Assembly: GCA_965223865.1 (NCBI GenBank)
Contig: OZ245020.1
Span: 1,312,001-1,376,000, forward strand
DNA: 64,000 nt
From: Nitrosarchaeum sp.
GTDB taxonomy: Archaea; Thermoproteota; Nitrososphaeria; Nitrososphaerales; Nitrosopumilaceae
Direction: 5' to 3'
In this document: positions 23,151-37,345 of the stretch, one piece after another
Layout: each line of letters starts with the position of its first letter
Position numbering within the stretch: the stretch's first letter is position 1
Translations under genes and position numbers: made by a program
Notes under the pieces: model-generated
The model's database searches: none
The model's input: only the letters and a program-made list of their open reading frames with translations
What the model was told of the DNA's origin: nothing

Positions 23151-23205
23151 TATAATGACATAATGTTAAAAAACAAAATTGGTGACTTCGTCTAATGTAC
23201 CAATA

Positions 23206-23715: not shown

Positions 23716-23743
23716 TCTAGGCTTTGTTGCTGTGTGTTAATAT

Positions 23744-24623: not shown

Positions 24624-25190
24624 CTATCCTCCTGTGACAGGGAATATATGAACATGCATACTTTTGTGTGTGTAAATGTGACCCATGCCATTTAGCGGAA
24701 CATCAACAGTTGCAGATCCAGACCATCCGCCTTCAACAATTCCAGTACCTACTAAATCACCAGCTCCTGCAGATACTGAAATCTTTTGGTTGACTCCATT
24801 ACCTCCAACATTTACTTCCTTGAGGGTAACTCTCAGGGCTTTCTCGTTTACTGGTTCTACATTAGAAATCTTCACACCAACAACTGAGGACATTGCCTTG
24901 TAGTACGGCTCACAGTAATGCGGGGGCATGTCTCCACCCATGTGGCATTGCTGATGAACTGTTCCAGGTCCATAAAATACTCCATGTCTACTTGGACCTC
25001 CACCACTGCCCATCATTCCGCTAGAGCTGCCATCTCCACCACCGTGACTCATTCCTCCACCAGAGCCTCCACCTCCTCCCATTCCACCCATCTGGGCTTC
25101 AACAGAAGAAAAGTCAGACGTGAATACAAGCGCAGATGACACAATCACTCCTGCAATGATTCCAATCAAAAGGCCTCGATTGATATTCAT
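24624..25190 (-). CDS. secreted Gly/Met/His-rich protein
   Basis: Signal peptide, low-complexity MGGMGGGGG tract, CHM....PHYCEP motif. Confidence 0.75.
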   Translation of the reverse strand: MNINRGLLIGIIAGVIVSSALVFTSDFSSVEAQMGGMGGGGGSGGGMSHGGGDGSSSGMMGSGGGPSRHGVFYGPGTVHQQCHMGGDMPPHYCEPYYKAMSSVVGVKISNVEPVNEKALRVTLKEVNVGGNGVNQKISVSAGAGDLVGTGIVEGGWSGSATVDVPLNGMGHIYTHKSMHVHIFPVTGG

Positions 25191-25317
25191 TGGTTATGAG
25201 AAAGAATATTGTAATTTAACTCACAAACCAGATTGTCACTTTTGATTTTCATATCTCAAAATCATATTTTTTGGAAAATTTCTCTGAATTATTCAAAAAA
25301 AGGTCAAATGAGTGGTC

Positions 25318-25331
25318 CTTATCTATACCCC
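25318..25331 (-). repeat. variant terminal-repeat end of a second (older) element
   Basis: Minus strand reads GGGGTATAGATAAG versus GGGGATATAGTTAAG (1 gap, 1 mismatch); directly abuts the 14-bp direct repeat. Confidence 0.65.
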
Positions 25332-25345
25332 ATACACGTTGTGCT
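25332..25345. repeat. target-site duplication, left copy
   Basis: ATACACGTTGTGCT, identical to 37069-37082. Confidence 0.92.
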
Positions 25346-25384
25346 GGGGATATAGTTAAGCAGTAATTTATCAGACCCACGTGG
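25346..25384 (+). repeat. left terminal inverted repeat
   Basis: GGGGATATAGTTAAG-N14-ACCCACGTGG. Confidence 0.9.
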
Positions 25385-25490
25385 TAGTATTTTTAATTCA
25401 GAAATTATTTCAAGTATATTTTGAGATGTTTTAACAATTAAAACATAGATCCATCTATTTACTAGCGTGGTTTAGCCCACACATACAAAA

Positions 25491-26426
25491 ATGGATAAAA
25501 ATCTAATTGCGGGAATTCTCATAATCACAAGTCCAATCCTTGCTGCATTTGCCATGTTTCCTGACAGTTTTGATATGAGTTGGAATCAGGGAAGGGGAGA
25601 CTTTCTCTTTGCACTTGTGTTTGTGGTTGCAGAGCTTGTTGGACTAAAAATCATCATCTCTAAAAAGAGACTCATTCTTGCGGTTCCGTTTGTAGCTGCA
25701 ATGATCTCATATGTGATTGGACTGGAGTTTGGAATAAGAGAATATTTGTTGGAATCATCCAAGACATTTGACATACAGTTAGTGGATTCCTGGATACAGA
25801 TGTGGGACTTTGTACTGATGGCACTGTTCATAACTGCAGTTCTGAGTGTCTATTTTGGTACAAGATGGATAAGAATTGCACCTGCTGCTCCCATATTTCT
25901 GGGAGGTTCTGCAATCATTCTTTCACTGGATGCATTTTTCCCGTATGACACACTAGGACCATTACAGTATGTGGTACCTTTTCTGGTGCAGACAAATGTC
26001 TGGTTAGTATCCGTGTTTGATTTGGGTACGGCAGTTGCGCGAGATAACCTAATGTTTCTAAAGGGTGATTTTGGTTCCATGGCACTACAGGTGTTCTGGC
26101 CATCTGCAGGCGTTCACAGTGTCGTCATCTACTCCCTTGTCATGGGTGCATTCTTGCTAAAAATGAACATTCCACGAAATAGAAAATCTGCCTACTTTGC
26201 ATTAGGAATTGCAGGCACCATTGGAGTCAATGTAATCAGAATCTTTTCTCTTTCGTGGTATGCCCTAAAGGTGACAACAGATACAGAAAAATGGGAGGCT
26301 TTCCATGACATTGCAGGCAGCATAATGTTCTTGCCGTGGCTGTTTGTATTTTTGTTCATAGTAATTCTCGTTGAAACCAGAAGAATGAAAAAAACAGAAC
26401 AGATTGAATCTAAAATAACACCATGA
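25491..26426 (+). CDS. artG: thaumarchaeosortase (archaeosortase/exosortase family)
   Basis: Polytopic membrane protein with FWPSAGVHS (Ser at the catalytic Cys position), N..RI and FH motifs. Confidence 0.88.
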   Translation: MDKNLIAGILIITSPILAAFAMFPDSFDMSWNQGRGDFLFALVFVVAELVGLKIIISKKRLILAVPFVAAMISYVIGLEFGIREYLLESSKTFDIQLVDSWIQMWDFVLMALFITAVLSVYFGTRWIRIAPAAPIFLGGSAIILSLDAFFPYDTLGPLQYVVPFLVQTNVWLVSVFDLGTAVARDNLMFLKGDFGSMALQVFWPSAGVHSVVIYSLVMGAFLLKMNIPRNRKSAYFALGIAGTIGVNVIRIFSLSWYALKVTTDTEKWEAFHDIAGSIMFLPWLFVFLFIVILVETRRMKKTEQIESKITP

Positions 26427-26468
26427 TATTTTTAAGTATATTTTAAAAAAAAATAGAATTTTAGTTGA

Positions 26469-26669
26469 CTATACATAGTTTCTCTTATCATCTACAGGGT
26501 CTGGTTGCTCATCTAAGGAAGATCTAAATGTGAAACCACAAGAATTGCACTTGCCCAACCAAAAATATTCTGCATAAATATCTGATACCATCACACCGGT
26601 CCAGTTTCCACTAAAAACAATATCGTTACTTTTGCATTTTGGACATAATGATGATTCAATAGTTTTCAT
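26469..26669 (-). CDS. Zn-ribbon hypothetical protein
   Basis: CPKC ... CNSCG. Confidence 0.65.
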   Translation of the reverse strand: MKTIESSLCPKCKSNDIVFSGNWTGVMVSDIYAEYFWLGKCNSCGFTFRSSLDEQPDPVDDKRNYV

Positions 26670-26686
26670 TCTCTACTATCTTTCTA

Positions 26687-27082
26687 TTAGTCAGTCTCAA
26701 GATGAGAACTAAATTCGTCAGAAACCATGTGTTTCCAATTTTCTATTGTATCGAGACATATACTTTCTATAAGGTATTGTCGATTTTCATCCATGGTCAA
26801 TTCTTTATCTTCAATTTTTTCTAGTGATTCCAGGGTTTTGATGTTTTCTTCAAAATACAAAGCACATGAATCATGTATCTTTTCTGAATCCTTAGCGGCA
26901 GTTATTATTTTGTCCAGTTCCTCCAAGTTTTTTGCATTAGATACTTTCTCAAGATATTCTTCCAAAGTCATGACATTATTTGTAGACAGTTTGTTCATCA
27001 ATACAAAATTGTCCACATAGACAAAAAATGATCCAAATCCCACAATTCCAATCAAGATAATTATCAAAACTATAGGTTTCAT
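26687..27082 (-). CDS. membrane-anchored hypothetical protein
   Basis: N-terminal TM helix, acidic helical domain with two Cys. Confidence 0.65.
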   Translation of the reverse strand: MKPIVLIIILIGIVGFGSFFVYVDNFVLMNKLSTNNVMTLEEYLEKVSNAKNLEELDKIITAAKDSEKIHDSCALYFEENIKTLESLEKIEDKELTMDENRQYLIESICLDTIENWKHMVSDEFSSHLETD

Positions 27083-27095
27083 TTTCTTTCTTCTA

Positions 27096-28091
27096 TCAAG
27101 GGATTAAACTCAAAATATGCTCTGCAGTCTCTTTGTTTTGTATTATGTTCATGTGATTTGTTCCCTCAATAACTACATGCTTTCCTTTATTGGATAAATC
27201 TGCTAACTCTTTACCCAAGAACATGTGCATTTCCCTTCTTTCATTTTCTGACATTTCTACCTCAGGCATATTGTTAAAATCCATCTCAGAGGCAGACATA
27301 GAAACAATTGGTAATGTTCCTCTTGGATAGTGAGCATGTTTTGTTTGTTCCAATGATTGCTCAAGATAGTTAACTTCTGATCTTATCGCATCAAAAGGAG
27401 GATTCCATGTGAAAAAATACTTGTACGTTTTTTGTGTGTCTTCATCAATTACATCTGAAGTGTTTTCAACAAAACCACCTAGTAAAGTCAAGATGCCAAG
27501 CTTGACGATGGCCTCTTCTATCCAGAAAGCAGACAGCAGTTCATGGTGTGTGCGATATATCTCATCTTTGTATTCTTGGCCAAAGTGATGATACTGATTG
27601 TAATGGCTTGAATCGATAAAGGCAATGCCTGCAACATCTTCTTCATGTTCTGCGCTGTAAATTAGGCTTACAGCACCTCCTAAGGAATGCCCTGCAAGAA
27701 TCAGAGGCCCTTTAATCTCGGCAGTGCTGAGTAGTTGATGCAATTCATCGGACATGTTTTTGGCATGTGCTGGTTCATTGTTTTGTCCACTCCATCCGTT
27801 TCCTGCGCGATCATAGGTGCAAGTGTGCACAGATTTGGACAATTCCTCCTGTAGATCGTAATACAAGGGACTCTGAACTCCCAGCCCTGCAATTATTACA
27901 ACAGTTGGTTGTTTGTCATTTTCTGGACCTGTACAATACAGGTGCATATCCATACCGTTAACCGAGTAGATTTTTCCAGGAGGATCGATTATTGGGACAC
28001 TATAATTGGCAATTTGTCCTGCGATGATAACACTGCCAATTAAAATGGCAACACCAACCCCAAAATATTTGAAAAATCTCTTAACTTGCAT
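27096..28091 (-). CDS. alpha/beta hydrolase, N-terminally anchored
   Basis: YDRAG.GWS, GHSLGG nucleophile elbow, C-terminal H (TNHM). Confidence 0.9.
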   Translation of the reverse strand: MQVKRFFKYFGVGVAILIGSVIIAGQIANYSVPIIDPPGKIYSVNGMDMHLYCTGPENDKQPTVVIIAGLGVQSPLYYDLQEELSKSVHTCTYDRAGNGWSGQNNEPAHAKNMSDELHQLLSTAEIKGPLILAGHSLGGAVSLIYSAEHEEDVAGIAFIDSSHYNQYHHFGQEYKDEIYRTHHELLSAFWIEEAIVKLGILTLLGGFVENTSDVIDEDTQKTYKYFFTWNPPFDAIRSEVNYLEQSLEQTKHAHYPRGTLPIVSMSASEMDFNNMPEVEMSENERREMHMFLGKELADLSNKGKHVVIEGTNHMNIIQNKETAEHILSLIP

Positions 28092-28237
28092 GGTTTTCTT
28101 TCTTGTCTAACCTCTTGTGTCAAATGGGAAGTTCATAAATTCTTCTGATACTTTATACATGTGAAAAAGCAAATAATTTGAGAGGCATTAGTCAAGCAGA
28201 TTACAAGTTAAAACAAACCCAGTTTCTGTGAATCTTT

Positions 28238-28519
28238 CTAGAATGTTTTTGTTTTTTTCAGGAAAACCGAGATTACAATCATGTTTACTGCAGCAGCAGT
28301 AACAGATGAAATCAGAGATGCCAAGTATGCCTCAACATCAACCTCAAGAAAATAATACAAAGTAACCCATCTGACCACAAGATAAACTATCTCACCTACT
28401 CCAAACGAGAATGTCATTTTGATAATTTCTCTTCTGATTAGACTTGATTCCATCTGCCTCATGATCAAGTTTGCAGAGTAATTCCTAATTATACTGAGCA
28501 AGCCTACAATGATCCTCAC
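28238..28519 (-). pseudogene. C-terminal fragment of a membrane protein
   Basis: Two-TM ORF beginning abruptly at the junction with an opposite-strand gene fragment at 28520. Confidence 0.45.
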
Positions 28520-28643
28520 ATGTACAGTTCAGATCCCGAAATGCAACTATATGAGTTTAGACAAGAATTTGGAGATTCATGGGCAGGTGGACACTGATGA
28601 AAAAGAAGATGTACTGAAAGTATGCAAGTTTAAGGAAACTTAG
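28520..28643 (+). pseudogene. fragment paralogous to 32043-32345
   Basis: YSSDPEMQLYEFRQEFGDSWAGGH/frameshift/DEKEDVLKVCKFKET; nucleotide similarity to ~32215-32325. Confidence 0.75.
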
Positions 28644-28669
28644 CGGTTTTAATTTTTAGAACAAATTAG

Positions 28670-28912
28670 TCACTCATTTGGCTCAACAGGAGTCATTCCG
28701 ACATCATTTTCATATACTGGAATTTCATCAGGTGATGAGTTTCCTTCATACAATGGGATTTCTGAGATTCCAGGATATCCTGAAGGAGAAATATTTTCTA
28801 TGAAATGGCCAGAAGAGCCAAGATGAATCCCATAACCCGCATAGTTAAAAATCACTAGTCCCAAAAATACAATTCCAACTCCAATTACAATCAGCCGAAT
28901 AGCTTTTGGCAT
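28670..28912 (-). CDS. membrane-anchored hypothetical protein
   Basis: N-terminal TM helix; repeated EIP.YE. Confidence 0.6.
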   Translation of the reverse strand: MPKAIRLIVIGVGIVFLGLVIFNYAGYGIHLGSSGHFIENISPSGYPGISEIPLYEGNSSPDEIPVYENDVGMTPVEPNE

Positions 28913-28967
28913 GGTTTTTCTTGGATTTTCAGACTCATAAGGACTGCTGACCTTTACTGAGATAAAA

Positions 28968-29513
28968 TTAGATATTATTTGGATTTGACTTTCTCAACAA
29001 GACTCCTGTCAATCCCATAATTCCAACTAACCATACAGAATTAGAAATGATATTTTCTGGATTATTGTACATGAATGGAATGGCATCATGCAGGTTTGCT
29101 TTAATCATATTCGCTCTGTTATGAAGGTCCATCAAGCCGGTATGGTATGCAGAAGAATCTTCTGGAAGAATGGAAATTTTATCAGTACTTTTCAGCATAC
29201 TATCGACATCGTTCTGTATTCTAAGAAAGTTTGTGGACTCTGATGGGAATATCCAAACAGGGTTTTTTGAAATTACAATACCATTGGGATTAGTAGTTTC
29301 AGGAAGCCTGTTCATTACAAAATCCAGGCTGGTTTTGAGGTTCAATAGGAGATTTTCAATCAGTTCAGGATTAGAAGACTCCTCAATTTCATTTAAGTAC
29401 GATAAGCTTGATTCTATTGGAATATTTGCACTTTGATAAGAGGCACCTGCAAAAGAACTTCCAACAATTATTAGAATTGAAAAATAAATAATTTGTTTAT
29501 CGGAAGTCTCCAT
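28968..29513 (-). CDS. two-TM hypothetical protein (paralog of 36259-36831)
   Basis: NPVWIFP..STNF.RIQ and DSSAYH motifs shared with 36259-36831. Confidence 0.75.
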   Translation of the reverse strand: METSDKQIIYFSILIIVGSSFAGASYQSANIPIESSLSYLNEIEESSNPELIENLLLNLKTSLDFVMNRLPETTNPNGIVISKNPVWIFPSESTNFLRIQNDVDSMLKSTDKISILPEDSSAYHTGLMDLHNRANMIKANLHDAIPFMYNNPENIISNSVWLVGIMGLTGVLLRKSNPNNI

Positions 29514-29663
29514 GCGTGTTTTTTGGGATTCAATTTTATTATATTTTCCTAGGCGGTTTGCACGTCAAATACTGTTTACCGAGTATTGGCTCATGGGATT
29601 CGCCTCCTTTTTGGAGTCAAAAATGGACACAAATAGACACAAAATGATAATTTTTTGTAAAAA

Positions 29664-30971
29664 TTACTGACCAATAAAGCATCTCTGAAATTGCTTTAAC
29701 AATTCTAAATTACCTTGTACTTTGATTTTTCCAGAATTGATGGCACCAATTTCTTCTTTAGGAGAAGTTTCTTTGTTAACCATTTTGAGCCATAATTCAG
29801 AATCAGAAATTATTCTTAGATCAGCAGTTCCAACATGTTCATCCTTAACGTCTATAATTTCGTCTTTGATTATTATGGTTCCCTTTCTTGTTTCCTTTCC
29901 AGTAGATTCAAAATGAACAGTCATGTTAACGTCTCTTGCATGTTTTTGCTCAAATGCAACACGTACACCAGTAAGAAAGCTGTTAATTGAATTTGGTCTA
30001 AACACATTTCGTATTATTCGAACATCTTTGTTTGGGTTTTTTCTGGCATATTCTTCTGCATGAGTGTCTTTTGCAACATAGATTGGCTCTTTTTTGTTTG
30101 TAAGAGGTTTTAGGATGTTTTTTACCCAATCTTGAGGATTCGCCTTGTAGATTCCCACTTGATTTTCCCCTGCAGGACACACAGAAATGCAATATGCTGC
30201 CTTGTATTGAGGGCCGTAGGACAAGGATTGCCATTTTGAAACATTTTCACTATCATCAGATTTTTTTCTAAATTCCTTGACATTGTTTGACTCTACAATA
30301 GTTTCTATCCAATCTTCAAAACCACCCATAAAATCTCTATAATTATGAGTCATGCACCCATTGAAGTCAACTCCTTTTCGTACATCAAGTGCACCAACGG
30401 GACAGGATGCAACACATAACTGACATCCAATACATGGATCATAATCAATTGGTCTGTCATACTTGTCAACTTCTGAATCAATCAAAATTGAATCAAGCAA
30501 CATGAATGTACCAAACTTTGGATGAAGTATCATCCTGTTAATTCCAGTCTTACCAATTCCAGCTTGTTCAGCAATTGGCTTGTGACTAATTTCCCAGATT
30601 TTGCCAGCCCATCTATTCATGTCCATAGGGAAAACGGGATGGCATGCAACACCTCTAATGCTAATTTCATTTAGACGTTTGATGATTTTTCTTGCAATTA
30701 TTGACAAATCAGCATATGTTTTATGGAATTCTTCACTTGCCAAAGATCTTGATGGACTCTGAATGTTTTCAGGATTTGTTCTAACACAAAATGAGATTAT
30801 TGTTTTTGTCTTATAGTACAACCCCAAGGCTTCTTCTTTCACAGGTCCTAGTTCCTTACGATCTATCTCTACAAAACCTGCATCATCAGCACCTTCTTCC
30901 AAACAAATTTTTCGCAAAAGCTCTGATGATGCACCTTGAAACATTGTAAGTTTTTTCGCATTACTTTTCAT
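29664..30971 (-). CDS. QueG/reductive-dehalogenase-like 4Fe-4S protein with C-terminal SCP2 domain
   Basis: SHK..AE.AG.G..G.N, HPKFG, C..C..C...CP..A and C...CP clusters; C-terminal ADL.I......W......GKIKV.G (SCP2-like). Confidence 0.8.
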   Translation of the reverse strand: MKSNAKKLTMFQGASSELLRKICLEEGADDAGFVEIDRKELGPVKEEALGLYYKTKTIISFCVRTNPENIQSPSRSLASEEFHKTYADLSIIARKIIKRLNEISIRGVACHPVFPMDMNRWAGKIWEISHKPIAEQAGIGKTGINRMILHPKFGTFMLLDSILIDSEVDKYDRPIDYDPCIGCQLCVASCPVGALDVRKGVDFNGCMTHNYRDFMGGFEDWIETIVESNNVKEFRKKSDDSENVSKWQSLSYGPQYKAAYCISVCPAGENQVGIYKANPQDWVKNILKPLTNKKEPIYVAKDTHAEEYARKNPNKDVRIIRNVFRPNSINSFLTGVRVAFEQKHARDVNMTVHFESTGKETRKGTIIIKDEIIDVKDEHVGTADLRIISDSELWLKMVNKETSPKEEIGAINSGKIKVQGNLELLKQFQRCFIGQ

Positions 30972-31005
30972 TATACAGGTACTTTACAAAAGTAAGTAAA
31001 TAAGA

Positions 31006-31029
31006 TAGCAAGTAACCTTTTGGTAACAT
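31006..31029 (-). promoter_or_regulatory. operator copy 1 (putative HxlR-family site)
   Basis: TAGCAAGTAACCTTTTGGTAACAT upstream of 29664-30971. Confidence 0.7.
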
Positions 31030-31076
31030 ACTCAAAGACAAACCAAAAATGAAAAACAAAATAAGAAAAATAGAGT

Positions 31077-31394
31077 TTAAGGATTAGCCGTTTCTAGTTT
31101 ATCCTGTATTCTGTCATAGTATCCATTGAGTTCTGCTCCTGGAACATGGAATTCTGCTGTAACTATACTGCCAGGAGGAGAATTACAGTCAGGTACAACA
31201 TAACTATGACCTTTGCTTGTTTCAACCACACATCCAGCCTCAATTACTGCAATAACTTCTACATTTTCAGTTACTTGTGCAGGAATGTAGTTCCAAGGAT
31301 TGATGGTGATAGCTACAATAGCAATTGTTGCTCCAGTAATTAACAGTACCATCATTAATGTAGGTTTTTTGTCATCTTTTTGTTGTTGAAACAT
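31077..31394 (-). CDS. membrane-anchored hypothetical protein (paralog of 24049-24369)
   Basis: TM helix; VTE.V.VIA....GCVVET ... C...PG ... GYY.R.Q. Confidence 0.75.
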   Translation of the reverse strand: MFQQQKDDKKPTLMMVLLITGATIAIVAITINPWNYIPAQVTENVEVIAVIEAGCVVETSKGHSYVVPDCNSPPGSIVTAEFHVPGAELNGYYDRIQDKLETANP

Positions 31395-31432
31395 TTGTAT
31401 TCCTAATCATTACAACAATATCAAAGATAAAT

Positions 31433-31456
31433 TAGCAAGTTACCAAAAGGTAACAT
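31433..31456 (-). promoter_or_regulatory. operator copy 2
   Basis: TAGCAAGTTACCAAAAGGTAACAT between divergent 31394 and 31544 starts. Confidence 0.7.
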
Positions 31457-31543
31457 AGAATAATTTAGGATTTTAAAATTGTTACATTTATAAAGTTGCT
31501 GTATAAAGTAAAGTTATTAAATACAATTCAATTTTAGAATAAT

Positions 31544-31960
31544 ATGATACCCCTACAACAACATCTAGATGAATTTGGGATGAAAACTTGTCCTCTCGAG
31601 GTTAGTTTAAGCATAATTGGGAAAAAATTTACCATTCACATTGTAAGAAACATGCTTTTGTTAAAGCAAAAACGATTCAACGAATTTCTAAATTCCATGG
31701 AAGGAATCAGCACCAAAACCCTATCAGTACGCCTAAAAGAGATGGAGGATGCAGGTTTGATTAATCGCAACATCATTGAAAGAAGACCATTGAAAGTAGA
31801 GTACTCTCTTACTGAAAAAGGAGAAGCACTTGCTCCAATCATGATACAGATGGCAAACTTTTCCATGCATTGGGAATCAAAAAAAGTTTTCAAAAATAAA
31901 AAACCTTCAACAATTAAGGAAACGTTTGGAACTGAGCGATTAGCTAAAGTTTGGGATTAG
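31544..31960 (+). CDS. HxlR/YodB-family redox-sensing transcriptional regulator
   Basis: CP.E..L.IIG.K, RFNE, IS.KTLS.RLKE.E..GLI.R, VEYSLTEKG. Confidence 0.92.
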   Translation: MIPLQQHLDEFGMKTCPLEVSLSIIGKKFTIHIVRNMLLLKQKRFNEFLNSMEGISTKTLSVRLKEMEDAGLINRNIIERRPLKVEYSLTEKGEALAPIMIQMANFSMHWESKKVFKNKKPSTIKETFGTERLAKVWD

Positions 31961-31984
31961 AATTCAACCGTTTCTAATAAAAAC

Positions 31985-32008
31985 ATGTTACTTTTTGGTA
32001 ACTTGCTA
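31985..32008 (+). promoter_or_regulatory. operator copy 3
   Basis: ATGTTACTTTTTGGTAACTTGCTA upstream of 32043. Confidence 0.7.
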
Positions 32009-32042
32009 ACTTATAGCATACAAAAATCACTTTTATTCATAA

Positions 32043-32345
32043 TTGTCACTCCGAACCCCCATTAATGATACAACAAAAATAATGATAATTCTTCTAGTAG
32101 GAATTGCGGCAAGTCTAGTAGTTATTTCTGTAATTGGAATACCTTATGATCAAGCTTGTAGAGAAATTCATAATTATTCAAAGCAAGCAGCTGAGGAGGA
32201 TTCCCCATATGAACCAGATCCTGAAAAATAATTGGATGCATTTAGACAGGAATTTGGAGATTCGTGGGCAGTGGGATACTATGATGAGAAAAAGGATTCA
32301 CTGCATGTGTGCAAGTTTAAGGAACATAATTTTTTGATTTTCTAA
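32043..32345 (+). pseudogene. membrane-anchored protein with an internal stop codon
   Basis: Frame continues past TAA at 32229-32231 as LDAFRQEFGDSWAVGYYDEKKDSLHVCKFKE; the paralog at 28520 has CAA at this codon. Confidence 0.7.
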
Positions 32346-32376
32346 GCTGCTGGAAAACGCATTCGCAAGGGTTTTC

Positions 32377-32751
32377 TCAATACATAGTATTGTTATTTTC
32401 TGAATTTTCAGGAATTTGTTGGATAGAATCCCAATGCTCCACTATCTTCCCATTCTCATCAAACCTGAAAAAGTCCATTGTCACGTACTCGTCATTTCCG
32501 GGCCAAGTCTGGTGCGTGTGCAAGGCGACCAGATCCCCTTCTGCAATGACTCTCACAAACTCTATGCCCTTTTCAGGATACTCTTTTGACATACGCTCAA
32601 AATAATCGATGAACCCTTGTCTTCCGTTTGCTACTGCAGGATTGTGTTGAATGTAATCATCTCCTACAAATTTCTCAACAGCCTCTTTTGGATTGCCTTC
32701 ATAGGCCATCCTGTAAAACGCTATTGCATTTTGTTTATTTTCTTCAAGCAC
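32377..32751 (-). CDS. SnoaL/NTF2-like protein
   Basis: YIQHNP...G..GF, AEGDLV..H, DFFRFD..GKIVEHWD. Confidence 0.9.
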   Translation of the reverse strand: MLEENKQNAIAFYRMAYEGNPKEAVEKFVGDDYIQHNPAVANGRQGFIDYFERMSKEYPEKGIEFVRVIAEGDLVALHTHQTWPGNDEYVTMDFFRFDENGKIVEHWDSIQQIPENSENNNTMY

Positions 32752-32839
32752 AACAAAGAAATCAATTGAGCATACTTTAGTATTTCAGATTCAGTATTAT
32801 GGAATATTGGACCGTTTATTCTTAGTTGGAAGAATAAAA

Positions 32840-33898
32840 TCAGTTCATCTCTTGCAATAATGACAATCCCAATTTATGAACTGGTTTCATAGCTCTGTTT
32901 GTTAGAACAACAGCAGCTGATTGGTTTTGCAGATTCATGCACATGAAACTAGAAAACCCTTGTGTGCCACCATCATGTCCAAGAACATCGACATTTTCTT
33001 GTGGAAACACAAACCACCCTATACGAAAAGTAGACAAGAAAATTCCAACAGATTTTGTAAATAATTTCATAGATGTGGGGATTTTTGGAGTGGTTTTGGT
33101 ATTTTGGCAGTATTCAAAAACAGGGGAGAGTTTTGTTTTGGTCAAGCCCAGGCTTGCTTTTAGGAACTTTATCATGTCAGATGTAGTTGAACGCAAACTT
33201 GCAGCTGCCTCTATTGCAGGAACATTCCAGTAATCAGTTTGTTTATTCCTAAAGGAATAGCCTGTTGCCAGTTTATGTTTATGGGATTCAAAAATGTCAA
33301 TCCCAGTATCTCTCATATCAAGCACATCACAAACATGACTTTTCACGAGTTGTTCGTATGAACTTCCAGTGATTCTTTCAAGTACTTTCCCTGCCAAACC
33401 AAAAGCGAGATTTGAATACATCCACGTATTTCCAGGAGAATTTTTTAGTTTTTGTGTGGACATGTATTTTAGAAATTTTTTTGTATCGTATTCGTATTCC
33501 GCAATTCGTGATTTGCCAGTAGACATTATTGACAACATTTGAGAGGCAAATACAGAAAATGAAAATTCTGAAATTCCTGAAGTATGTGTAAGAAGATGAT
33601 TCAAAGTAATGTTATTTTTATCAAATGCAGAATCTTTTAGCTCTGGTAGGAATATAGTTATAGGTTCATCAAGTGATAATATTCCTTCTTGTTGTAATTT
33701 CACTGCAAGTATAGCAGTAAAGGTCTTTGTCATTGAGCCAATCTCAAAAACGGTATCGGTAGTTGGTTCAGTATTTGATTTTTTTTCAATTTCTCCATAA
33801 TTGAAAGTTTGAATGCCATTTTCATTGATTAACCCAACAGAAATTCCGGGACTTTTCCCAGATGTGACATGTTGTTTGAGAAGAGATTCAATACTCAC
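32840..33898 (-). CDS. serine hydrolase, beta-lactamase class C / AmpC-like family
   Basis: FEIGSMTK (SxxK), LLTHTSG, YSN, HDGG. Confidence 0.9.
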   Translation of the reverse strand: MSIESLLKQHVTSGKSPGISVGLINENGIQTFNYGEIEKKSNTEPTTDTVFEIGSMTKTFTAILAVKLQQEGILSLDEPITIFLPELKDSAFDKNNITLNHLLTHTSGISEFSFSVFASQMLSIMSTGKSRIAEYEYDTKKFLKYMSTQKLKNSPGNTWMYSNLAFGLAGKVLERITGSSYEQLVKSHVCDVLDMRDTGIDIFESHKHKLATGYSFRNKQTDYWNVPAIEAAASLRSTTSDMIKFLKASLGLTKTKLSPVFEYCQNTKTTPKIPTSMKLFTKSVGIFLSTFRIGWFVFPQENVDVLGHDGGTQGFSSFMCMNLQNQSAAVVLTNRAMKPVHKLGLSLLQEMN

Positions 33899-35115
33899 TT
33901 TATTTTCTCATCCCAATTCACCTTGTAAGAGAATATCCAATTTTGTCCTTTTTTGAAATTGGATTCACGTAAACCAACTTTAAGGAAAATTTTAGCGGCA
34001 ATCTTGCCCAAAATTCCAGATCTTAGAAATATGTTGCCGCTTTTCTGTGCTTCCATTACTATTCTCTCCACTCTGTCCTTTCGCAAAGACTCAAACTTTG
34101 TAAATGATTGCTCATGGTCAGAAACATCCCTAAGGCATTTTGCAAGGGCCACTGCATCCTCCATTGAGGCTGCCGCACCCTGGCCTATGTGGGGGGATGT
34201 GGCATGTGCAGCATCTCCAATCAGACACACCCTACCCTTATGCCACTTGTCCAAATGTGGGATGGAATAGATTGGAATCTTGACATAGTCTCTTGACATC
34301 TTGATGAATCTCTTTATCTGATCATCCTCTTTGTGAAACTCGAGCAATTTTTTTGTCCATTGTTCATCTGAGATATTTTTCAGCTCAGTCTTTATGGATT
34401 CTTCAGGATATGGAACATAACTCCACCAAACCATATTGTTGTCTGCTTCTACTGATGCACCACACAAGGTATTTTTGGCAAGGGTCATGTGAAATGCATT
34501 TGGTTCCAAACTGTGATCACTTTTTTTGCCCAACTCAGATCCTATCACGACAGTTCCAGAATATTCAGGCAATGGCGCACCAGGCAAGATTGCCTCTCTT
34601 GTCTTGGAGCGCAATCCGTCACAGCCTATTAGGAGATCCCCTTCTGCGCAAGTTCCGTCTTCAAAATGCGCAGTTACCTTTTCATCTGTCTCTTTGACAT
34701 CAACAAGTCTTTTTCCAAACTCCACAGGCATGCCAATGGATATGGCCTTTTGGGTCATCTCATGAATTAAATTCTCACGCCTGATGATTACCATGCCAGA
34801 ACCAAACTTTTCTCTCATCCATCCCCCAAAATCCATCTTGAAGATGTTCTTTCCGGAATGATTGTAAAAAAAGATCTTTGTAGAGTCGTCTACATTGATG
34901 CTCTTGTACACATCCAACATCTTCAAAATATTGATTCCGTTTGAGGTCAAAGAGAGCAGCCCAAAGTTTGGAGGTTTCTTATGTGCCTCATATATCTCTG
35001 AGTCAATTCCAGCACGATTTAGTGCAAGTGCCAAAGTTGGACCTGCAATTCCACATCCTACAATTATCACCTTTTTCTTATCTTTTTTATTTTCTGTGGA
35101 ATTCTCTGCTGTCAT
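33895..35115 (-). CDS. FAD-dependent monooxygenase (group A flavoprotein hydroxylase)
   Basis: G.GIAG, DG..S..R, LIGDAAH...P..GQGA....EDA. Confidence 0.92.
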   Translation of the reverse strand: MTAENSTENKKDKKKVIIVGCGIAGPTLALALNRAGIDSEIYEAHKKPPNFGLLSLTSNGINILKMLDVYKSINVDDSTKIFFYNHSGKNIFKMDFGGWMREKFGSGMVIIRRENLIHEMTQKAISIGMPVEFGKRLVDVKETDEKVTAHFEDGTCAEGDLLIGCDGLRSKTREAILPGAPLPEYSGTVVIGSELGKKSDHSLEPNAFHMTLAKNTLCGASVEADNNMVWWSYVPYPEESIKTELKNISDEQWTKKLLEFHKEDDQIKRFIKMSRDYVKIPIYSIPHLDKWHKGRVCLIGDAAHATSPHIGQGAAASMEDAVALAKCLRDVSDHEQSFTKFESLRKDRVERIVMEAQKSGNIFLRSGILGKIAAKIFLKVGLRESNFKKGQNWIFSYKVNWDEKIK

Positions 35116-35161
35116 TTTTTGTTCTCTTTGCTGTATCTTAGTTCTGAAATTATATAAACCG

Positions 35162-35175
35162 ACCGGTGCACCGGT
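35162..35175. promoter_or_regulatory. perfect palindrome, putative TetR operator
   Basis: ACCGGTGCACCGGT in the divergent monooxygenase/TetR intergenic region. Confidence 0.7.
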
Positions 35176-35245
35176 ATGTATTAGTTTTATAGTTGAGAAC
35201 CAAATCAGTAGAATTTAGATACTGGTGTGTGTCCTATTGTAGATA

Positions 35246-35845
35246 GTGAAGAAAACCCGTGTCAAAGACCCTGTTTCTGTAAAAAAAAGAATACTGGAAT
35301 CAGCTACAAAGAATTTTGCAAAAAACGGGTATGCAAAGACATCGCTTAATTCGATTGCAGAATCTGCCAAGGTAAGCAAAGGAGGACTGTACCATCACTT
35401 TCAAAGCAAGGAGGAACTGTTTACTGCAGTACTGTTTCAAAGCGTAGAACTTTCTGAAAAAACCAACTCAAATCTATTTCAAAACAAGGACAACATTGTA
35501 AAAGATCTGAACGAAAGTTATGACAAGGTAATTGACGGACCATTAAATTTTGCCAAAATCTGGATAGAGGGAATTTCTGAGTCAATACATAATCCAAAGC
35601 TCAGAAAACTGCTAAATCAGGGACGAGGTGAAACGGTAAAAATTGCAGTATCAAGACTAAAGAAAATACGAGAAGGTATAGGCGCATATCAAGGATTTAG
35701 TGATTCTGAGTTGACAGAGGTGGCAGAGTTAGTTTTGGACATATACAGAGGAATGATGATTGAAAGAGTATTGGGAAAGGACTCAAAATTGATCAGAAAG
35801 CGATGGATCAAAGCAATGCAATTGCTTTTGGCTTTGAAAAAATGA
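35246..35845 (+). CDS. TetR/AcrR-family regulator
   Basis: ILESA...F...GY..TS...IA..A.VSKG.LYHHF.SKEEL. Confidence 0.95.
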   Translation: MKKTRVKDPVSVKKRILESATKNFAKNGYAKTSLNSIAESAKVSKGGLYHHFQSKEELFTAVLFQSVELSEKTNSNLFQNKDNIVKDLNESYDKVIDGPLNFAKIWIEGISESIHNPKLRKLLNQGRGETVKIAVSRLKKIREGIGAYQGFSDSELTEVAELVLDIYRGMMIERVLGKDSKLIRKRWIKAMQLLLALKK

Positions 35846-35894
35846 GGTTAAGTTTTTACTACTAATCATGTTCTTGAATTGTAAACATGTTAGT

Positions 35895-36170
35895 TTATTT
35901 TAAAAAATAATCCACGGATTTTCGAGATGTTATATTTGCCTCGTTTTTGGAATTGTATTTTGAGTTTCCTAGTCTGAGTGAATAACCTATTAGTAAAAAC
36001 AGGGCAATTGCAGGAATGGTAAATCCTACTGCTACTATACCATACAGTACTTCTTTTGTCAATACATTTGCAAGAAAATTCTGGATTGGAGGAAAAGCAA
36101 CCACAATCAAGCTAGTTAAAAGTGAAGAAAACATGAAAAGTCCAAAATATTGCCACTTGTGATTTTGCAT
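35895..36170 (-). CDS. small membrane protein
   Basis: Two TM helices. Confidence 0.6.
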   Translation of the reverse strand: MQNHKWQYFGLFMFSSLLTSLIVVAFPPIQNFLANVLTKEVLYGIVAVGFTIPAIALFLLIGYSLRLGNSKYNSKNEANITSRKSVDYFLK

Positions 36171-36258
36171 TTGTAATTGTTAGTTAGCAGTAGAATTTAT
36201 CTTTGATTAAAAATAACGTAAATTTGGTGACAATTAAAGTAATTTATTAATTAAACAA

Positions 36259-36831
36259 TTACCTATTTGCATTTATTTGATTTCTTTTCTGTTTGAATGC
36301 CCAAAGTATGGCTACAAAAGCAGATGCCATAATTGAGCTAAATGCCAGATTTGCTACACTAAACATTGCATAAAGGGAAGCTTCTGCAATGTTTTCACGA
36401 AGAACCAGCGAATTATTGCTAATTTCAACGAGTTTTACATGATATGAAGAACTATCTTGCGGAGTCCACGTAAGTGATTCTGCATTCAGAATCATTCTAT
36501 CCAAATTCTCTTGCATACGGTTAAAGTCAGTAGTCATTGTAGGATAGATAAAAACAGGATTACCCTTATGCGGCAGATTTGTTTTTATCTCTTCAAGATT
36601 GGAATAGATCTCTTGAGGATCAGAGGAACTCATTACAATTCCTAACTGTGTTCTACTTTTGTCAAGGGGGTAAATGGCACCAAAATAATAACTAGTAAAC
36701 ATATATCCTGCAAAAACGACAACTGCAAGCATCCCAACAACATATGGAAGATAGATCTTGTTTATCATTTGTTTTCCATTTTGTTTATGTACTTTATTTC
36801 TTTTTTTGAAACTTGGGTGATTATAATCCAA
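36259..36831 (-). CDS. two-TM hypothetical protein (paralog of 28968-29513)
   Basis: NPVFIYP...TDF.RMQ and DSSSYH; real start possibly the downstream MINKIY. Confidence 0.75.
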   Translation of the reverse strand: MDYNHPSFKKRNKVHKQNGKQMINKIYLPYVVGMLAVVVFAGYMFTSYYFGAIYPLDKSRTQLGIVMSSSDPQEIYSNLEEIKTNLPHKGNPVFIYPTMTTDFNRMQENLDRMILNAESLTWTPQDSSSYHVKLVEISNNSLVLRENIAEASLYAMFSVANLAFSSIMASAFVAILWAFKQKRNQINANR

Positions 36832-36985
36832 AAATCTCTTCCATCTCTATTCTTGGATTCTTTTTTGGAATTTTCCTAATGGAATTTCCAATATCCAAAT
36901 TTCGGTACTTTATCATGCATGCCATTGTAAATCCTATGATACCCAACATCATTATATCAATGGGTGTAGGTACAGGAAGATTCAT
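36821..36985 (-). CDS. small membrane protein (54 aa, not in ORF track)
   Basis: MNLPVPTPIDIMMLGIIGFTMACMIKYRNL...; co-oriented with neighbours. Confidence 0.5.
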   Translation of the reverse strand: MNLPVPTPIDIMMLGIIGFTMACMIKYRNLDIGNSIRKIPKKNPRIEMEEIFGL

Positions 36986-37029
36986 GATTAAGATATTACA
37001 TTCATGATTTTATAAAATGTTGTTTTTTT

Positions 37030-37068
37030 CCACGTGGGTACGTTCTAAAACACCTTAACTATATCCCC
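37030..37068 (-). repeat. right terminal inverted repeat
   Basis: Reverse complement GGGGATATAGTTAAG-N14-ACCCACGTGG. Confidence 0.9.
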
Positions 37069-37082
37069 ATACACGTTGTGCT
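37069..37082. repeat. target-site duplication, right copy
   Basis: ATACACGTTGTGCT. Confidence 0.92.
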
Positions 37083-37345
37083 CCCATTCAAATTTGAACC
37101 AAATATTGAACAATTTCAGATCTAAAACCTTATGAGAAGCGTCAGATTTCTAGGCGTAAACTGGAGGATTTCTATTTTTACTCTTTCTCGATGAATTCTT
37201 TCGCACCTTATCTATAAAATAAACAAAAACTAATCTCTAGAATTTTATTCATATGGAAAAGTGTTCTAATCATCTCTTTAAGATCCTACATTCTCAGATT
37301 TGATAATAGTCAATTAATTAATCTGCTTCTGACAGAGGTGGGTAT

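Follow-up and report, generated by a model that had tools for sequence, protein, structure and literature searches.

A probable cas1-less relative of family-2 casposons in an ammonia-oxidizing archaeon

Results

Architecture and gene content of the element

The window that we analyzed is a stretch of 64,000 nucleotides from a Nitrosarchaeum genome (G000). On inspection of the sequence, positions 25346-37068 of the window (11.7 kb) are bounded by a bipartite 39-bp pair of terminal inverted repeats (TIRs) and a perfect 14-bp duplication, just as originally predicted (Table 1). Each TIR consists of a 15-bp outer box and a 10-bp inner box, with a 14-nt spacer between them. The two TIRs are identical at 30 of 39 positions: both boxes match perfectly (15/15 and 10/10), and the spacers agree at 5/14. 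In a repeat search of positions 24000-38500, this was the longest of 267 inverted pairs.

Open reading frames cover 81% of the element. Among the 15 that encode at least 80 amino acids, Pfam finds no Cas1, PolB, DDE transposase, or tyrosine recombinase, so that part of the original prediction holds. Seven of the 15 have no Pfam family.

The accessory genes inside the element form a mosaic, and related cassettes are found in other elements of the same lineage. The parts are a thaumarchaeosortase paralogue; a cassette of TetR, FAD-monooxygenase, beta-lactamase-fold, and alpha/beta-hydrolase genes; and HxlR, SnoaL-like, and ferredoxin-SCP2 genes. (The NCBIfam matches of the ferredoxin-SCP2 protein are far under their cut-offs.) The HxlR gene has 30-nt inverted repeats on either side (31427-31456 and 31985-32014). 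Several genes have paralogues: the thaumarchaeosortase has a second copy at C1:1679678-1680598 (73% protein identity), the alpha/beta-fold hydrolase has a 52.5% paralogue at C1:1075692-1076684, and the beta-lactamase-fold hydrolase has an 83% paralogue at C1:1074635-1075687. The gene for the latter is also 86% identical, as DNA, to G004:1811201-1812220. Its protein scores 141 bits against the class-C model, whose cut-off is 415, so it can be named only to its fold class. The FAD-monooxygenase and TetR genes have a 92.5% DNA copy, inverted, within another cas1-less element (G004:606853-618624), which also has a perfect duplication and a leader-proximal position. In L037, the region upstream of cas1 encodes homologues of the FAD-monooxygenase (47% and 39%). 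Finally, the right-end module is 88% identical, as DNA, to C1:1061487-1062597, and the similarity continues into an inner TIR box that lies buried at that locus.

Table 1. Features in and around the element (positions in the window)
Position	Strand	Feature	Basis or detail
22006..25317		Remainder of at least one older array member; left part of G000-specific island	Synteny, homologues
25318..25331	-	Decayed outer box of neighboring older element's terminus	Reads GGGGTATAGATAAG on - strand
25332..25345		Left 14-bp repeat/TSD	ATACACGTTGTGCT, reverse complement of AGCACAACGTGTAT
25346..25384	+	Left TIR	GGGGATATAGTTAAG (outer box, 25346-25360), 14-nt spacer, ACCCACGTGG (inner box, 25375-25384)
25491..26426	+	Thaumarchaeosortase paralogue, 311 aa	TIGR04297, 534 bits vs. 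cut-off 250
26687..27082	-	ORF, 131 aa, no family	Pfam, NCBIfam
27096..28091	-	Alpha/beta-fold hydrolase, 331 aa	PF00561, E = 1.8e-11
28238..29513	-	Three small ORFs (93, 80, 181 aa), no family	Pfam
29664..30971	-	4Fe-4S ferredoxin-domain + SCP2-domain protein, 435 aa	PF02036 + PF00037
31077..31394	-	ORF, 105 aa, no family	Pfam
31544..31960	+	HxlR-type transcription regulator	PF01638, E = 7e-24
32377..32751	-	SnoaL-like protein, 124 aa	PF12680
32840..33898	-	Beta-lactamase-fold serine hydrolase, 352 aa	PF00144, E = 2e-62
33895..35115	-	FAD-dependent monooxygenase, 406 aa	PF01494
35246..35845	+	TetR-family regulator, 199 aa	PF00440
35895..36831	-	Two small ORFs (91, 190 aa), no family; right-end module	DNA similarity
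37030..37068	-	Right TIR	CCACGTGGGT (inner box, 37030-37039), 14-nt spacer, CTTAACTATATCCCC (outer box, 37054-37068)
37069..37082		Right (leader-proximal) copy of 14-bp repeat	Sequence (ATACACGTTGTGCT)
37083..37100	-	Leader GGTTCAAATTTGAATGGG	TCAAATT at -15 to -9 from insertion site
37163..37192	-	AR1-type (family-1) casposon TIR end	TIR 37163-37179 + 13-mer ACTCTTTCTCGAT 37180-37192

The ends recur across Nitrosopumilaceae

We gathered 43 distinct copies of the consensus terminus, GGGGATATAGTTAnG-N14-ACCCACGTGgAA, from 24 sources. The spacer is 14 nt long in 41 of them. Upstream of the terminus there is usually either an 18-nt conserved leader with a conserved 14-mer (15/43) or another terminus with the 14-mer (21/43). 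In five of the remaining seven cases, the preceding sequence ends in CCCC, like a decayed terminus. The left flank of our element (cttatctatacccc, 25318-25331) is itself a terminus, now decayed, that belonged to an older member of the array; its inner box is no longer recognizable. This was overlooked in the original prediction.

Could the repeats be due to chance, or to an assembly artefact at a repeated sequence? This AT-rich window contains 42 exact 14-mer direct pairs that are 5-20 kb apart (20 shuffled versions average 11), and the short-read assemblies from the source runs have contig breaks at 37057, in the right TIR. Against this, G000 has six exact termini, while the reversed control pattern has no matches in 221 genomes; the same architecture is found in 43 copies; and a 7.9-kb contig spans the left junction with 0 differences. 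We give this idea almost no credence. The duplication is informative only in that the 14-mer directly adjoins both TIRs and the entire layout is found repeatedly. Just 5 of the 221 sampled genomes from the family contain exact termini.

The 14-mer is not a random target. It is a conserved sequence that is shared with other copies and other genomes (another point that had been overlooked), and the leader with its repeat (~32 nt) occurs at about 13-18 places in G000. The leader and 14-mer are identical at unrelated loci, which a simple model of a host target site fails to explain. Because the 14-mer is a repeat that is conserved between loci and genomes, the earlier argument that identical duplications imply a recent insertion is weakened, although older copies do diverge.

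Relatives with the same ends encode a casposase

Related Nitrosopumilaceae have elements with the same ends that do encode enzymes: a family-2-type casposase of ~410 amino acids and a probable PolB. First, in G004, which is from the same genus, C1:470407-481306 contains the leader, AGCACAACGTGTAT, a TIR, 10.8 kb, a TIR, and the same 14-mer. This element (470439-481292) carries a C-terminal remnant of Cas1 (PF01867, E = 1.4e-22, model positions 191-282). At E ≤ 0.001, 728 proteins are related to the remnant; most of the 120 listed are ~410 amino acids long and 79-88% identical.

Second, we considered 13 loci with a full-length casposase that is at least 82% identical to P0006. A GGGG-type terminus lies 1.3-7.2 kb downstream of cas1 at nine of these loci, and at two of the other four, the contig ends within 200 bp of cas1.

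Third, L037 and L041 together give a complete element of 20,468 bp, with AGCACAATGTTATT flanking both sides (a perfect 14-bp duplication). It encodes a complete Cas1 (E = 5e-61) along with a 944-amino-acid protein that contains YMDTDS. We take this and further motifs of the protein to be family-B polymerase motifs. The protein is kept beside cas1 in 23 of 56 loci, and in a language-model look-alike comparison (Atlas), it groups with polymerase clusters at 0.97-0.98. It has no match in sequence searches of Pfam, NCBIfam, PHROGs, or the PDB. From its motifs and the look-alike comparison, it is probably PolB. The relatives also carry an HNH-like gene beside cas1 and the probable polB.

The closest solved relative of P0006 is 6opm (E = 6e-70, residues 2-398), which is the family-2 casposase of M. 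mazei (PMC8464041). The AR1-type Cas1 of G003 shares just 30% identity with P0006. The description of our element as casposon-like, despite its lack of both cas1 and polB, is therefore supported, since its relatives share its TIR, 14-mer, and leader.

The leader and the insertion site

Among the 14 leaders in which the motif TCAAAT is exact, it begins at -15 in 13. The family-2 casposase of A. boonei requires TCAAATC at 9-15 bp upstream of the insertion site (PMC6614799), and TCAAATT in our leader (-15 to -9) is at the same distance. A difference is that the repeat begins with AG here, while the A. boonei casposase requires CC. There is no tRNA gene in the window; the best tRNA 3' end agrees at only 14 of 24 positions.

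Given these similarities, we propose that 25346-37068 is, very probably, a cas1-less and polB-less member of a Nitrosopumilaceae lineage of family-2-type casposons that occupies the leader-proximal slot of an array. The array would run from the leader (37100-37083, - strand) through a 14-bp repeat, the element, and another 14-bp repeat to a decayed older element. By homology to the A. boonei and M. mazei enzymes, we infer that the ~410-amino-acid casposase would recognize the TCAAAT motif in the leader, 9-15 bp upstream. It would then join the 3' ends of the element (...ATATCCCC-3') to both strands, 14 bp apart, at the border of leader and repeat, and gap repair would double the 14-mer.

Alternatively, the 14-mer could be the core of an att site. 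A site-specific recombinase of the tyrosine or serine type would then have moved the element as an integrative island, with the inverted repeats as its binding arms. The direct repeats at both ends are compatible with this, and the TIR-14-mer-TIR junctions look superficially like a core site with inverted arms. However, the element has no recombinase, the four PF00589 matches in G000 (C1:860764, 866048, 1627454, and 1856771) are away from GGGG termini, and the leader side lacks an inverted arm. Also, it is Cas1 rather than an integrase that the intact relatives encode, and the 14-bp repeat and the position of TCAAAT fit the biochemistry of family-2 casposases. We consider an att site to be very improbable.

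How did the element reach its present site?

Cas1 is absent from the whole of G000, which is 99.98% complete. With tblastn, the best scrap of cas1 in G000 was 18 amino acids (E = 0.007); polB and the other three backbone genes had no match. Because neither Cas1, PolB, nor a recombinase is encoded in the element and the genome has no casposase, we view it as a non-autonomous relative of casposons that is now stranded. (Without cas1 and polB, it falls outside the definition of a casposon.)

The cargo is not syntenic core DNA: G004 is syntenic (91%) up to 22001 and again from 37344, but these two stretches are separated in G004 by 4.9 kb of unrelated DNA. On contig C4 of G006, an intact leader-proximal terminus is followed directly, on its inner side, by homologues of 23206-24386, and the region 22006..25317 has paralogues at C1:1574-1580 kb. 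A search for an empty-site allele found none: the orthologous places in G004 and G006 lack the leader and 14-mer, rather than having a single 14-mer. Likewise, the 11.7-kb unit did not recur in 151 genomes from the family; we found only pieces of it (86-93% identity), in different places and in another orientation.

The original prediction was that the element had been mobilized in trans. This is one candidate route: there is no casposase in G000, we found no empty-site allele and no second unit, and decay or recombination within tandem arrays is an equally good origin. We rate integration in trans of a cas1-less unit as a little short of an even prospect. In M. mazei, cargo-only mini-casposons translocate in vivo and enter a resident TSD, which gives a tandem (PMC10359463).

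Almost as likely is an origin in place, in which cas1-bearing members of the array decayed or recombined. The 11.7-kb unit would never have transposed as such. Instead, one or two tandem autonomous casposons would have inserted at the leader, and the cas1-polB core would have been lost by internal replacement or by deletion from one array member into the next. The outer TIR pair and two copies of the array repeat would remain, which would account for the "perfect" TIR and duplication. Three cases show that events of this kind happen. The G004 element at 470439-481292 has a perfect duplication and good TIRs, yet just the last third of cas1; at C1:1062597, a right end is cut after the inner box and buried within another stretch; and C1:650180-650305 is a stub, with two perfect 14-mers merely 93 bp apart. 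The mosaic cargo, the lack of a second copy, and the poorly matched TIR spacers also favor decay. On the other hand, none of the five backbone genes is traceable in the element or in G000, despite the perfect ends and dense coding. Also, the cas1-less elements are in the newest, leader-proximal slot, while it is the older neighbor's terminus that has decayed; gradual decay predicts the opposite. Some other route for the element is unlikely.

A separate issue is whether the entire island moved. The AR1-type end lies outside the element, at the right edge of the island. Just beyond this TIR, its 13-mer, and a short fragment (GAATTC...) that resembles the 3' end of a gene, the G000-specific stretch comes to an end (between 37193 and 37343), so the whole array may have arrived by another route. 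Specifically, a casposase-type insertion could have occurred elsewhere (such as in an ef-2-linked array or a donor genome), and the block from ~22006 to ~37200, with the leader, repeats, and AR1-type end, could have moved here later by duplication or by illegitimate or homologous recombination. The same AR1-type junction is found at C1:282987, and the junction at C1:1476002 has a longer flank that resembles the target flank of the G003 casposon. Also, G004 has neither leader nor 14-mer at the corresponding locus, and both are likewise missing from the 700 bp that precede the nitroreductase gene in G006 (C23). But no matching AR1-type end or 13-mer is present at the left edge near 22006, and there is no AR1-type end beside the leader at seven cas1-linked leader sites in other genomes or in G006 C4. 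Furthermore, since G004 has 4.9 kb of other DNA at this locus, replacement in G004 is equally possible. Relocation of the island, which would fit both of the proposed origins of the element, seems rather unlikely.

Comparison to known systems

Our preferred reading places the element beside the family-2 casposons AciBoo-C1 (A. boonei), MetMaz-C1 (M. mazei), and NitNCS1-C1 (Ca. Nitrosotalea okcheonensis). It shares with them TIRs of ~37-39 bp, a duplication of 14-15 bp, insertion beside a leader with TCAAAT(C/T) 9-15 bp upstream, and tandem arrays that share one repeat. The casposase of its relatives aligns end to end with 6opm, and their gene set (cas1, probable polB, and an HNH-like gene) is the one given for NitNCS1-C1. 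It differs from them in lacking cas1 and polB and in its target, a multi-copy leader and repeat rather than a tRNA gene. The family-1 (AR1-type) casposons of thaumarchaea have the same host family: an AR1-type end is located 95 bp away from the element, and a complete casposon of this type is present in G003. However, they have a different TIR (AAAAATAGAATCCCCCC...), duplicate 13 bp, and target the ef-2 gene, and their Cas1 lacks the HTH domain.

In having just cargo between TIRs (with the TSD), the element resembles the artificial mini-casposons of M. mazei (in vivo; PMC10359463) and of the Ca. N. koreensis AR1 casposase (in vitro; PMC8464041), for which the casposase is supplied from elsewhere and insertion into an existing repeat yields a tandem. 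Those are laboratory constructs of 1-4 kb, whereas ours is natural, 11.7 kb long, and only putatively mobile. Similarly, non-autonomous transposons (MITE-like or cargo-bearing) have their autonomous partner's ends without its enzyme, but G000 has no autonomous partner and the unit is single-copy.

The solo TIRs and inactivated tandem casposons of Methanosarcina (PMC4779613) are decay products kept at the insertion site, in arrays formed by re-use of the site; their authors compared these arrays to Tn7 islands. But each of those remnants is either a lone TIR or a copy whose polB is broken, whereas here both TIRs and repeats are perfect and the interior is filled with unrelated, apparently intact genes. 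Finally, the layout of leader, repeat, insert, and repeat, with new inserts at the leader end, is analogous to a CRISPR array, although the inserts are elements of 10-20 kb instead of 30-40-bp spacers. The element illustrates, in an ammonia-oxidizing archaeon, how casposon insertion sites gather and shuffle host genes.

Casposon ends around a set of accessory genes

The sequences that the original prediction gave for terminal inverted repeats (TIRs) and for a 14-bp duplication are present in the window as it had described (see the table). The TIRs that bound the element (25346-37068) are bipartite and 39 bp long. They agree at 30/39 positions, which include every position of the two boxes and 5/14 of the spacer. 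In a repeat search of window 24000-38500, this was the longest of 267 inverted pairs. By itself, the 14-mer direct repeat proves little in this window, which contains 42 exact 14-mer direct pairs 5-20 kb apart (vs. ~11 in shuffles). We consider the feature to be real because the 14-mer abuts both TIRs and because the architecture recurs. (The 3' ends of the element are ...ATATCCCC. The TIR of the A. boonei casposon, as published, is 37 bp, and only its five 3'-terminal nucleotides are required for integration.)

A casposon in the strict sense has TIRs, a target-site duplication (TSD) of 13-15 bp, Cas1, and a family-B polymerase. The element has the first two, and its 14-bp TSD is matched by perfect (14/14) duplications in three related elements. 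It lacks the other two. The original prediction saw nothing like Cas1, PolB, a DDE transposase, or a tyrosine recombinase inside, and Pfam searches with the 15 ORFs of at least 80 aa, which occupy 81% of the element, agree: no such enzyme and no polymerase family was found, and 7/15 ORFs have no family at all. The GC content (36.1%) is not an outlier for 11.7-kb windows of this genome (34.0 +/- 1.7%).

Table. Coordinates of the element, its surroundings, and other sites in G000, the genome that contains the window
Feature	Position	Remark
14-bp repeat, ATACACGTTGTGCT	window 25332-25345 and 37069-37082	copies 14/14 identical
Left TIR, GGGGATATAGTTAAG-N14-ACCCACGTGG	window 25346-25384	immediately inside left 14-mer
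Right TIR, inverted partner of left TIR	window 37030-37068	immediately inside right 14-mer
Leader at right end	window 37083-37100 (- strand)	adjoins right 14-mer
Decayed terminus at left end	window 25318-25331	adjoins left 14-mer
Segment of ~180 bp duplicated within the element	window 28457-28637 and 32142-32324	79-83% identity, 3685 bp apart
HxlR gene	window 31544-31960	between the 30-nt inverted repeats
30-nt inverted repeats	window 31427-31456 and 31985-32014	93% complementary
Palindromic core GTAACC-TTTTGG-TAAC	window 31009-31032	third copy
AR1-type TIR end, 13-mer ACTCTTTCTCGAT, and short ...EFIEKE* fragment	window 37163-37197; C1:282959-283004; C1:1475985-1476030	
~390-aa membrane protein paralogues	C1:129549-130755, 486222-487397, 775881-777066, 849575-850739	62-95% identical
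Array member reduced to a stub	C1:650180-650305	leader, two perfect AGCACAGCATGTAT 93 bp apart, decayed terminus
88% copy of the element's right-terminal 1.1 kb (91-aa and 190-aa ORFs)	C1:1061487-1062600	inner TIR box without outer box; buried in another GGGG-bounded stretch

The termini form a family

The outer TIR box recurs in G000 (2.01 Mb in 4 contigs, 99.98% complete). The majority of these copies read ...GGTTCAAATTTGAnTGGG, AGCACAACGTGTAT, GGGGATATAGTTAG-N14-ACCCACGTGGAA, which is a conserved 18-nt leader, the 14-mer, and a terminus. In the remaining copies, the terminus follows another terminus and a 14-mer, and we read such junctions as the signature of tandem elements with one common repeat. 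The element fits both patterns: its right end adjoins the 14-mer and a leader, and its left end adjoins the 14-mer and a decayed terminus.

We collected 43 distinct termini from 24 sources. Their consensus is GGGGATATAGTTAnG, a spacer (14 nt in 41/43), and then ACCCACGTGgAA. A leader precedes 15 of them, another terminus precedes 21, and something else precedes 7; for five of those seven, including the element's own, this is a CCCC end that resembles a decayed terminus. Scanning 221 sampled genomes of the family with an exact pattern (with a flexible gap) identified the terminus in five: 13 copies in G004, which is from the same genus, 6 in G000, 5 in G006, 3 in G237, and 1 in G001. The reversed pattern, as a control, had no matches in any of the 221 genomes.

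Another stretch of G000 bounded by TIRs (C1:1067043-1080391, 13.3 kb) has inverted 14-mers at its ends (AGCACAACATGCAT on the left and CATCATGTTGTGCT on the right). This looks like the product of a fusion between two facing arrays or of an inversion.

Related elements encode a casposase

Cas1 matches were found in 4/6 other genomes of the genus. One of these lies in G004 (C1:470407-481306), inside an element that consists of a leader, AGCACAACGTGTAT, a TIR, 10.8 kb, a TIR, the same 14-mer, and a decayed terminus. What is left of this Cas1 is its last third (positions 191-282 of the Pfam model, E = 1.4e-22). The remnant has 728 relatives at E <= 0.001. Most of the 120 relatives listed have a length of ~410 aa and an identity of 79-88%, and the names of several refer to Nitrosopumilus MAGs.

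We then examined the DNA around relatives of one such casposase (P0006; 56 loci). GGGG-type termini, the TIR ends of this family, are present in 22/56 loci. Where a full-length casposase is at least 82% identical to P0006, 9/13 loci have a terminus 1.3-7.2 kb downstream of cas1, where it either adjoins a leader and 14-mer or meets a second TIR back to back across a 14-mer (TIR-14-mer-TIR). (Of the other 4, two are on contigs that end <200 bp from cas1.) Around casposases that are 58-70% identical to P0006, these ends were not seen at the thresholds used, save for one upstream copy (L050).

Two overlapping loci from one chromosome contain a complete element of 20,468 bp, which is the middle of a three-member array with AGCACAATGTTATT on both sides. 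It encodes a full Cas1 (E = 5e-61), a C5-methylase, a GHKL ATPase, an EamA transporter, and a 944-aa protein. The 944-aa protein is conserved upstream of cas1 in 23/56 loci and has no match in Pfam, PHROGs, NCBIfam, or PDB-sequence searches. It contains YMDTDS, KRY, and, by eye, what we take to be Pol A-like and Pol B-like motifs, and the protein Atlas groups it with polymerase clusters at 0.97-0.98. Given these motifs and the look-alikes in the Atlas, it is probably a family-B polymerase.

The best solved relative of P0006 (410 aa) is 6opm (E = 6e-70, residues 2-398), which is the family-2 casposase of M. mazei (PMC8464041). P0006 is only 30% identical to the Cas1 of the complete casposon in genome G003, which is of the AR1 type (family 1). 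By its best PDB match, the casposase of the relatives seems to belong to family 2 (C-terminal HTH, ~405 aa). Given the Cas1, the 944-aa protein, and the match to 6opm, we therefore class the autonomous relatives with the family-2 type, as elements that encode Cas1 and a PolB-like protein. The element under study has the same TIR, repeat, and leader as these casposase-encoding elements.

G000 lacks the casposase and the polymerase

Several searches found no casposon enzymes in G000. First, Cas1 (PF01867) is absent both from the whole genome and from the element's 15 ORFs; in 14 reference genomes, the same search was positive in 7. Second, tblastn with P0006 gave scraps of at most 18 aa (best E = 0.007), none of them inside the element, and tblastn with the 944-aa protein gave nothing better than E = 0.5. 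Third, three other genes of the backbone, which 19-21 of the 56 loci share, have no trace in G000. All of the GGGG-type elements of G000 are therefore without a backbone. The original prediction had proposed searching the full genome for a stand-alone casposase or pPolB; G000 has no autonomous partner. G004 is similar, with 13 exact termini vs. one truncated cas1 and one cas1 fragment. In the genomes searched, the genus resembles G000 in this: casposon-type elements are numerous, and an intact casposase is absent.

We also considered other kinds of mobile element. Tyrosine-recombinase integrative elements carry their integrase gene inside, and their att core is usually in a tRNA gene. The element has no PF00589 match, the four matches in G000 are away from these termini, and no tRNA gene was found in the window; we consider this explanation very unlikely. 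A ~390-aa protein just inside four termini was a candidate transposase, but by eye it is a polytopic membrane transporter with the look of a cation/proton antiporter. (Each paralogue is within a few kb of a GGGG-type terminus, on its inner side.) Its 547-aa neighbor looks, again by eye, like a thermosome subunit. Both were dropped as cargo or ordinary genes. Two large paralogues without a known family (497 and 583 aa, 42% identical) are also found in GGGG-bounded elements of G000.

The target is a leader and a 14-bp repeat

The element's leader has TCAAATT at -15 to -9, and TCAAAT begins at -15 in 13/14 of the leaders that contain exactly TCAAAT. For the A. boonei casposase, TCAAATC is 9-15 bp upstream (PMC6614799). 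The leader motif sits at the distance used by this characterized family-2 casposase, which makes it a candidate recognition motif. The element's 14-mer starts with AG, not CC.

The leader and 14-mer together (32 nt) are identical at window 37069-37100 and in two metagenome contigs whose flanks are unrelated (L126:549-580 and L127:5011-5042), and they are nearly identical in G004, in G006, and in Nitrosopumilus MAGs. The DNA upstream of the leader is unrelated between sites, and each copy of the leader and 14-mer that we saw is occupied by a terminus. No empty natural target was found: the exact sequence has 2 matches in metagenome contigs, both with a terminus. A plain host target would not give an identical 32-nt unit at unrelated sites, and the unit may travel with the arrays. 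We also asked if the leader derives from the 3' end of a tRNA. It resembles the T-loop of a tRNA (GGTTCAAAT), and outside this sequence no tRNA 3' end of G000 matches it (the best is 14/24, for tRNA-Pro-CGG). We keep a tRNA origin only as a weak lead.

The locus in related genomes and in sequencing runs

G004 is 91% identical to the window up to position 22001 and resumes at the nitroreductase gene (37344). The 4.9 kb between these points is unrelated, and no terminus, leader, or 14-mer was seen in it at the thresholds used. The original prediction had named syntenic core DNA as part of what would refute it; the region is not core DNA. The prediction also proposed looking for an empty-site allele, and neither G004 nor G006 has a clean one. 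(In G004, at C1:359808-363499 [L106], a 3.7-kb insertion separates the orthologues of the nitroreductase [window 37346-37873] and PCMT [37974-38633].)

In G006, contig C4 has a leader, the 14-mer, an intact TIR, and then homologues of window 23206-24386. This supports our reading of window 22006-25331 as what is left of an older member of the array.

Four sequencing runs of one study, which are probably the source material, contain the element's junction. Their contigs bridge the left junction without any difference and stop at 37057, inside the right TIR. None of these contigs joins across the element, but these are contigs and not raw reads, so rare empty or excised forms could escape. The sole long skip is from 24130 to 34199, at a depth of 2.7 and with one side of just 25 nt. 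Three of the runs (X5-X7) have an extra contig that is ~94% identical over window 34250-35811 (96 differences in 1562 nt), at ~5x the depth of the main genome, which indicates that a related strain or element is present in that material.

At three sites in G000, including the window, the leader is ~65 nt inside an AR1-type casposon end, so that the ends of two casposon families are nested or juxtaposed. The fragment after the AR1 13-mer reads like the 3' end of a gene. Of the three junctions, only C1:1476002 has a long flank like that at the casposon target in G003. The right edge of the island coincides with this junction, so an array at that site may be the original from which the whole array here was copied.

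The cargo

As most NCBIfam matches were far below the cut-offs, we named the cargo by enzyme class only. The exception is the first gene, a thaumarchaeosortase paralogue (TIGR04297, 534 bits), with a second copy in G000 that is 73% identical. Matches to this gene's DNA were found in 129/151 genomes of the family (a tally that includes the unpublished genomes G103, G117, and G118), and most are at 65-74%.

Another GGGG-bounded stretch of G000 (C1:1072657-1076684) repeats, in unchanged order, the element's cassette of TetR, FAD-monooxygenase, beta-lactamase-fold, and alpha-beta-hydrolase genes, with protein identities of 42, 36, 83, and 52.5%. The FAD-monooxygenase and TetR pair is 92.5% identical at the DNA level to an inverted segment within G004:606853-618624. 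There are also homologues (47%, 39%, and 43%) 6-9 kb upstream of cas1 in a casposase locus (L037), where they are probably inside that casposon. The inverted repeats around the HxlR gene and the third palindromic core are probably operator sites.

How could an element without cas1 arise?

Insertion by the chemistry of the characterized enzymes would explain why the element is leader-proximal, why it has a 14-bp duplication, and why tandem junctions form. The question is whether the element was integrated as a cas1-less unit by a casposase acting in trans, or whether it decayed, or formed as a chimera, in place. We give integration in trans slightly less than an even chance. In its favor are the perfect ends, the dense and intact ORFs, and the lack of any backbone trace. 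The element also occupies the newest slot, next to a decayed neighbor. A second case in G004 (606853-618624; 11.8 kb) is leader-proximal, with a perfect AGCACAACGTGCAT duplication and no Cas1 match, and mini-casposons provide an in vivo precedent (PMC10359463). G000 itself has no autonomous partner, however.

In-place decay or chimera formation is a serious contender, although we hold it to be somewhat short of an even bet. The G004 element with the truncated cas1 has perfect ends too. In G000, a right end truncated after the inner box lies buried at C1:1062597, and elsewhere a 93-bp stub separates two perfect 14-mers. The cargo is a mosaic. No second copy of the unit was found in 151 genomes, and a tag of the left TIR and spacer had no exact matches in metagenome contigs. 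Also, the repeats of an array are all identical, so a deletion between members would recreate a "perfect" element.

If cas1-less units are indeed integrated in trans, then Cas1-type integrases would be transferring genes of their hosts from strain to strain in a group of ecological importance, and the arrays would offer a natural, testable model of how an architecture of leader, repeat, and insert could have come before CRISPR. A broader proposal, which we consider unlikely, is that the units of leader and 14-bp repeat in Nitrosopumilaceae propagate themselves as "casposon arrays," or gene-capture platforms that are fed in trans by casposases that circulate in the population. There would be about a dozen platforms per genome, cas1-less cargo modules would always enter at the leader end, and the conserved leader-repeat unit would move together with its array, like the leaders and repeats of CRISPR. 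If so, these loci would be a living analogue of the proposed transition from casposons to CRISPR, and a major route for the flow of accessory genes in marine ammonia oxidizers.

Comparison with known casposons

Casposons, duplications of 14-15 bp, dependence on a leader, tandem arrays, inactivated copies, and solo-TIRs have all been described (PMC8464041, PMC6614799, PMC10359463, PMC4779613). In the portions of the literature available to us (those papers and PMC6452270, PMC13343696, PMC9939771, and PMC6563490), we did not find a natural cargo casposon without cas1, that is, an element with complete TIRs and TSD that lacks cas1 and polB and is filled with other genes. Nor did the casposon literature available to us mention a Nitrosopumilus/Nitrosarchaeum lineage or its multi-copy, non-tRNA target. 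A caveat is that Table S2 and data file 1 of PMC6563490 cover every integrated element of 20 thaumarchaeal genomes, and the "cryptic integrated elements" could include such forms.

As described so far, casposons are rare and self-contained transposons with Cas1 and PolB, whose known decay products are broken copies and solo-TIRs, and cargo-only casposons have until now been laboratory constructs. The element in the window is natural: its casposon ends and its duplication are perfect, its interior has accessory genes alone, and its genome, with about a dozen insertion sites of this kind, encodes no casposase. Its relatives reveal a large casposon lineage of the family-2 type in marine and soil ammonia-oxidizing archaea, with arrays in which new inserts are beside the leader.

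The element differs from the family-1 AR1 casposon, which targets ef-2 and has a 13-bp duplication, a leader that ends in GTTTT, and a TIR that ends in TTCTA (PMC8464041); the complete example in G003 has the TIR AAAAATAGAATCCCCCC... and the duplication ACTCTCTGTCGAT. The element's TIR is different, its repeat is 14 bp, and the AR1-type end is beside it rather than at its ends. A single family-2 casposon has been reported from Thaumarchaeota, and NitNCS1-C1, the published thaumarchaeal one, is located in a tRNA-Pro gene. In contrast, the target of this lineage is not a tRNA gene but a conserved leader and repeat that is present in multiple copies.
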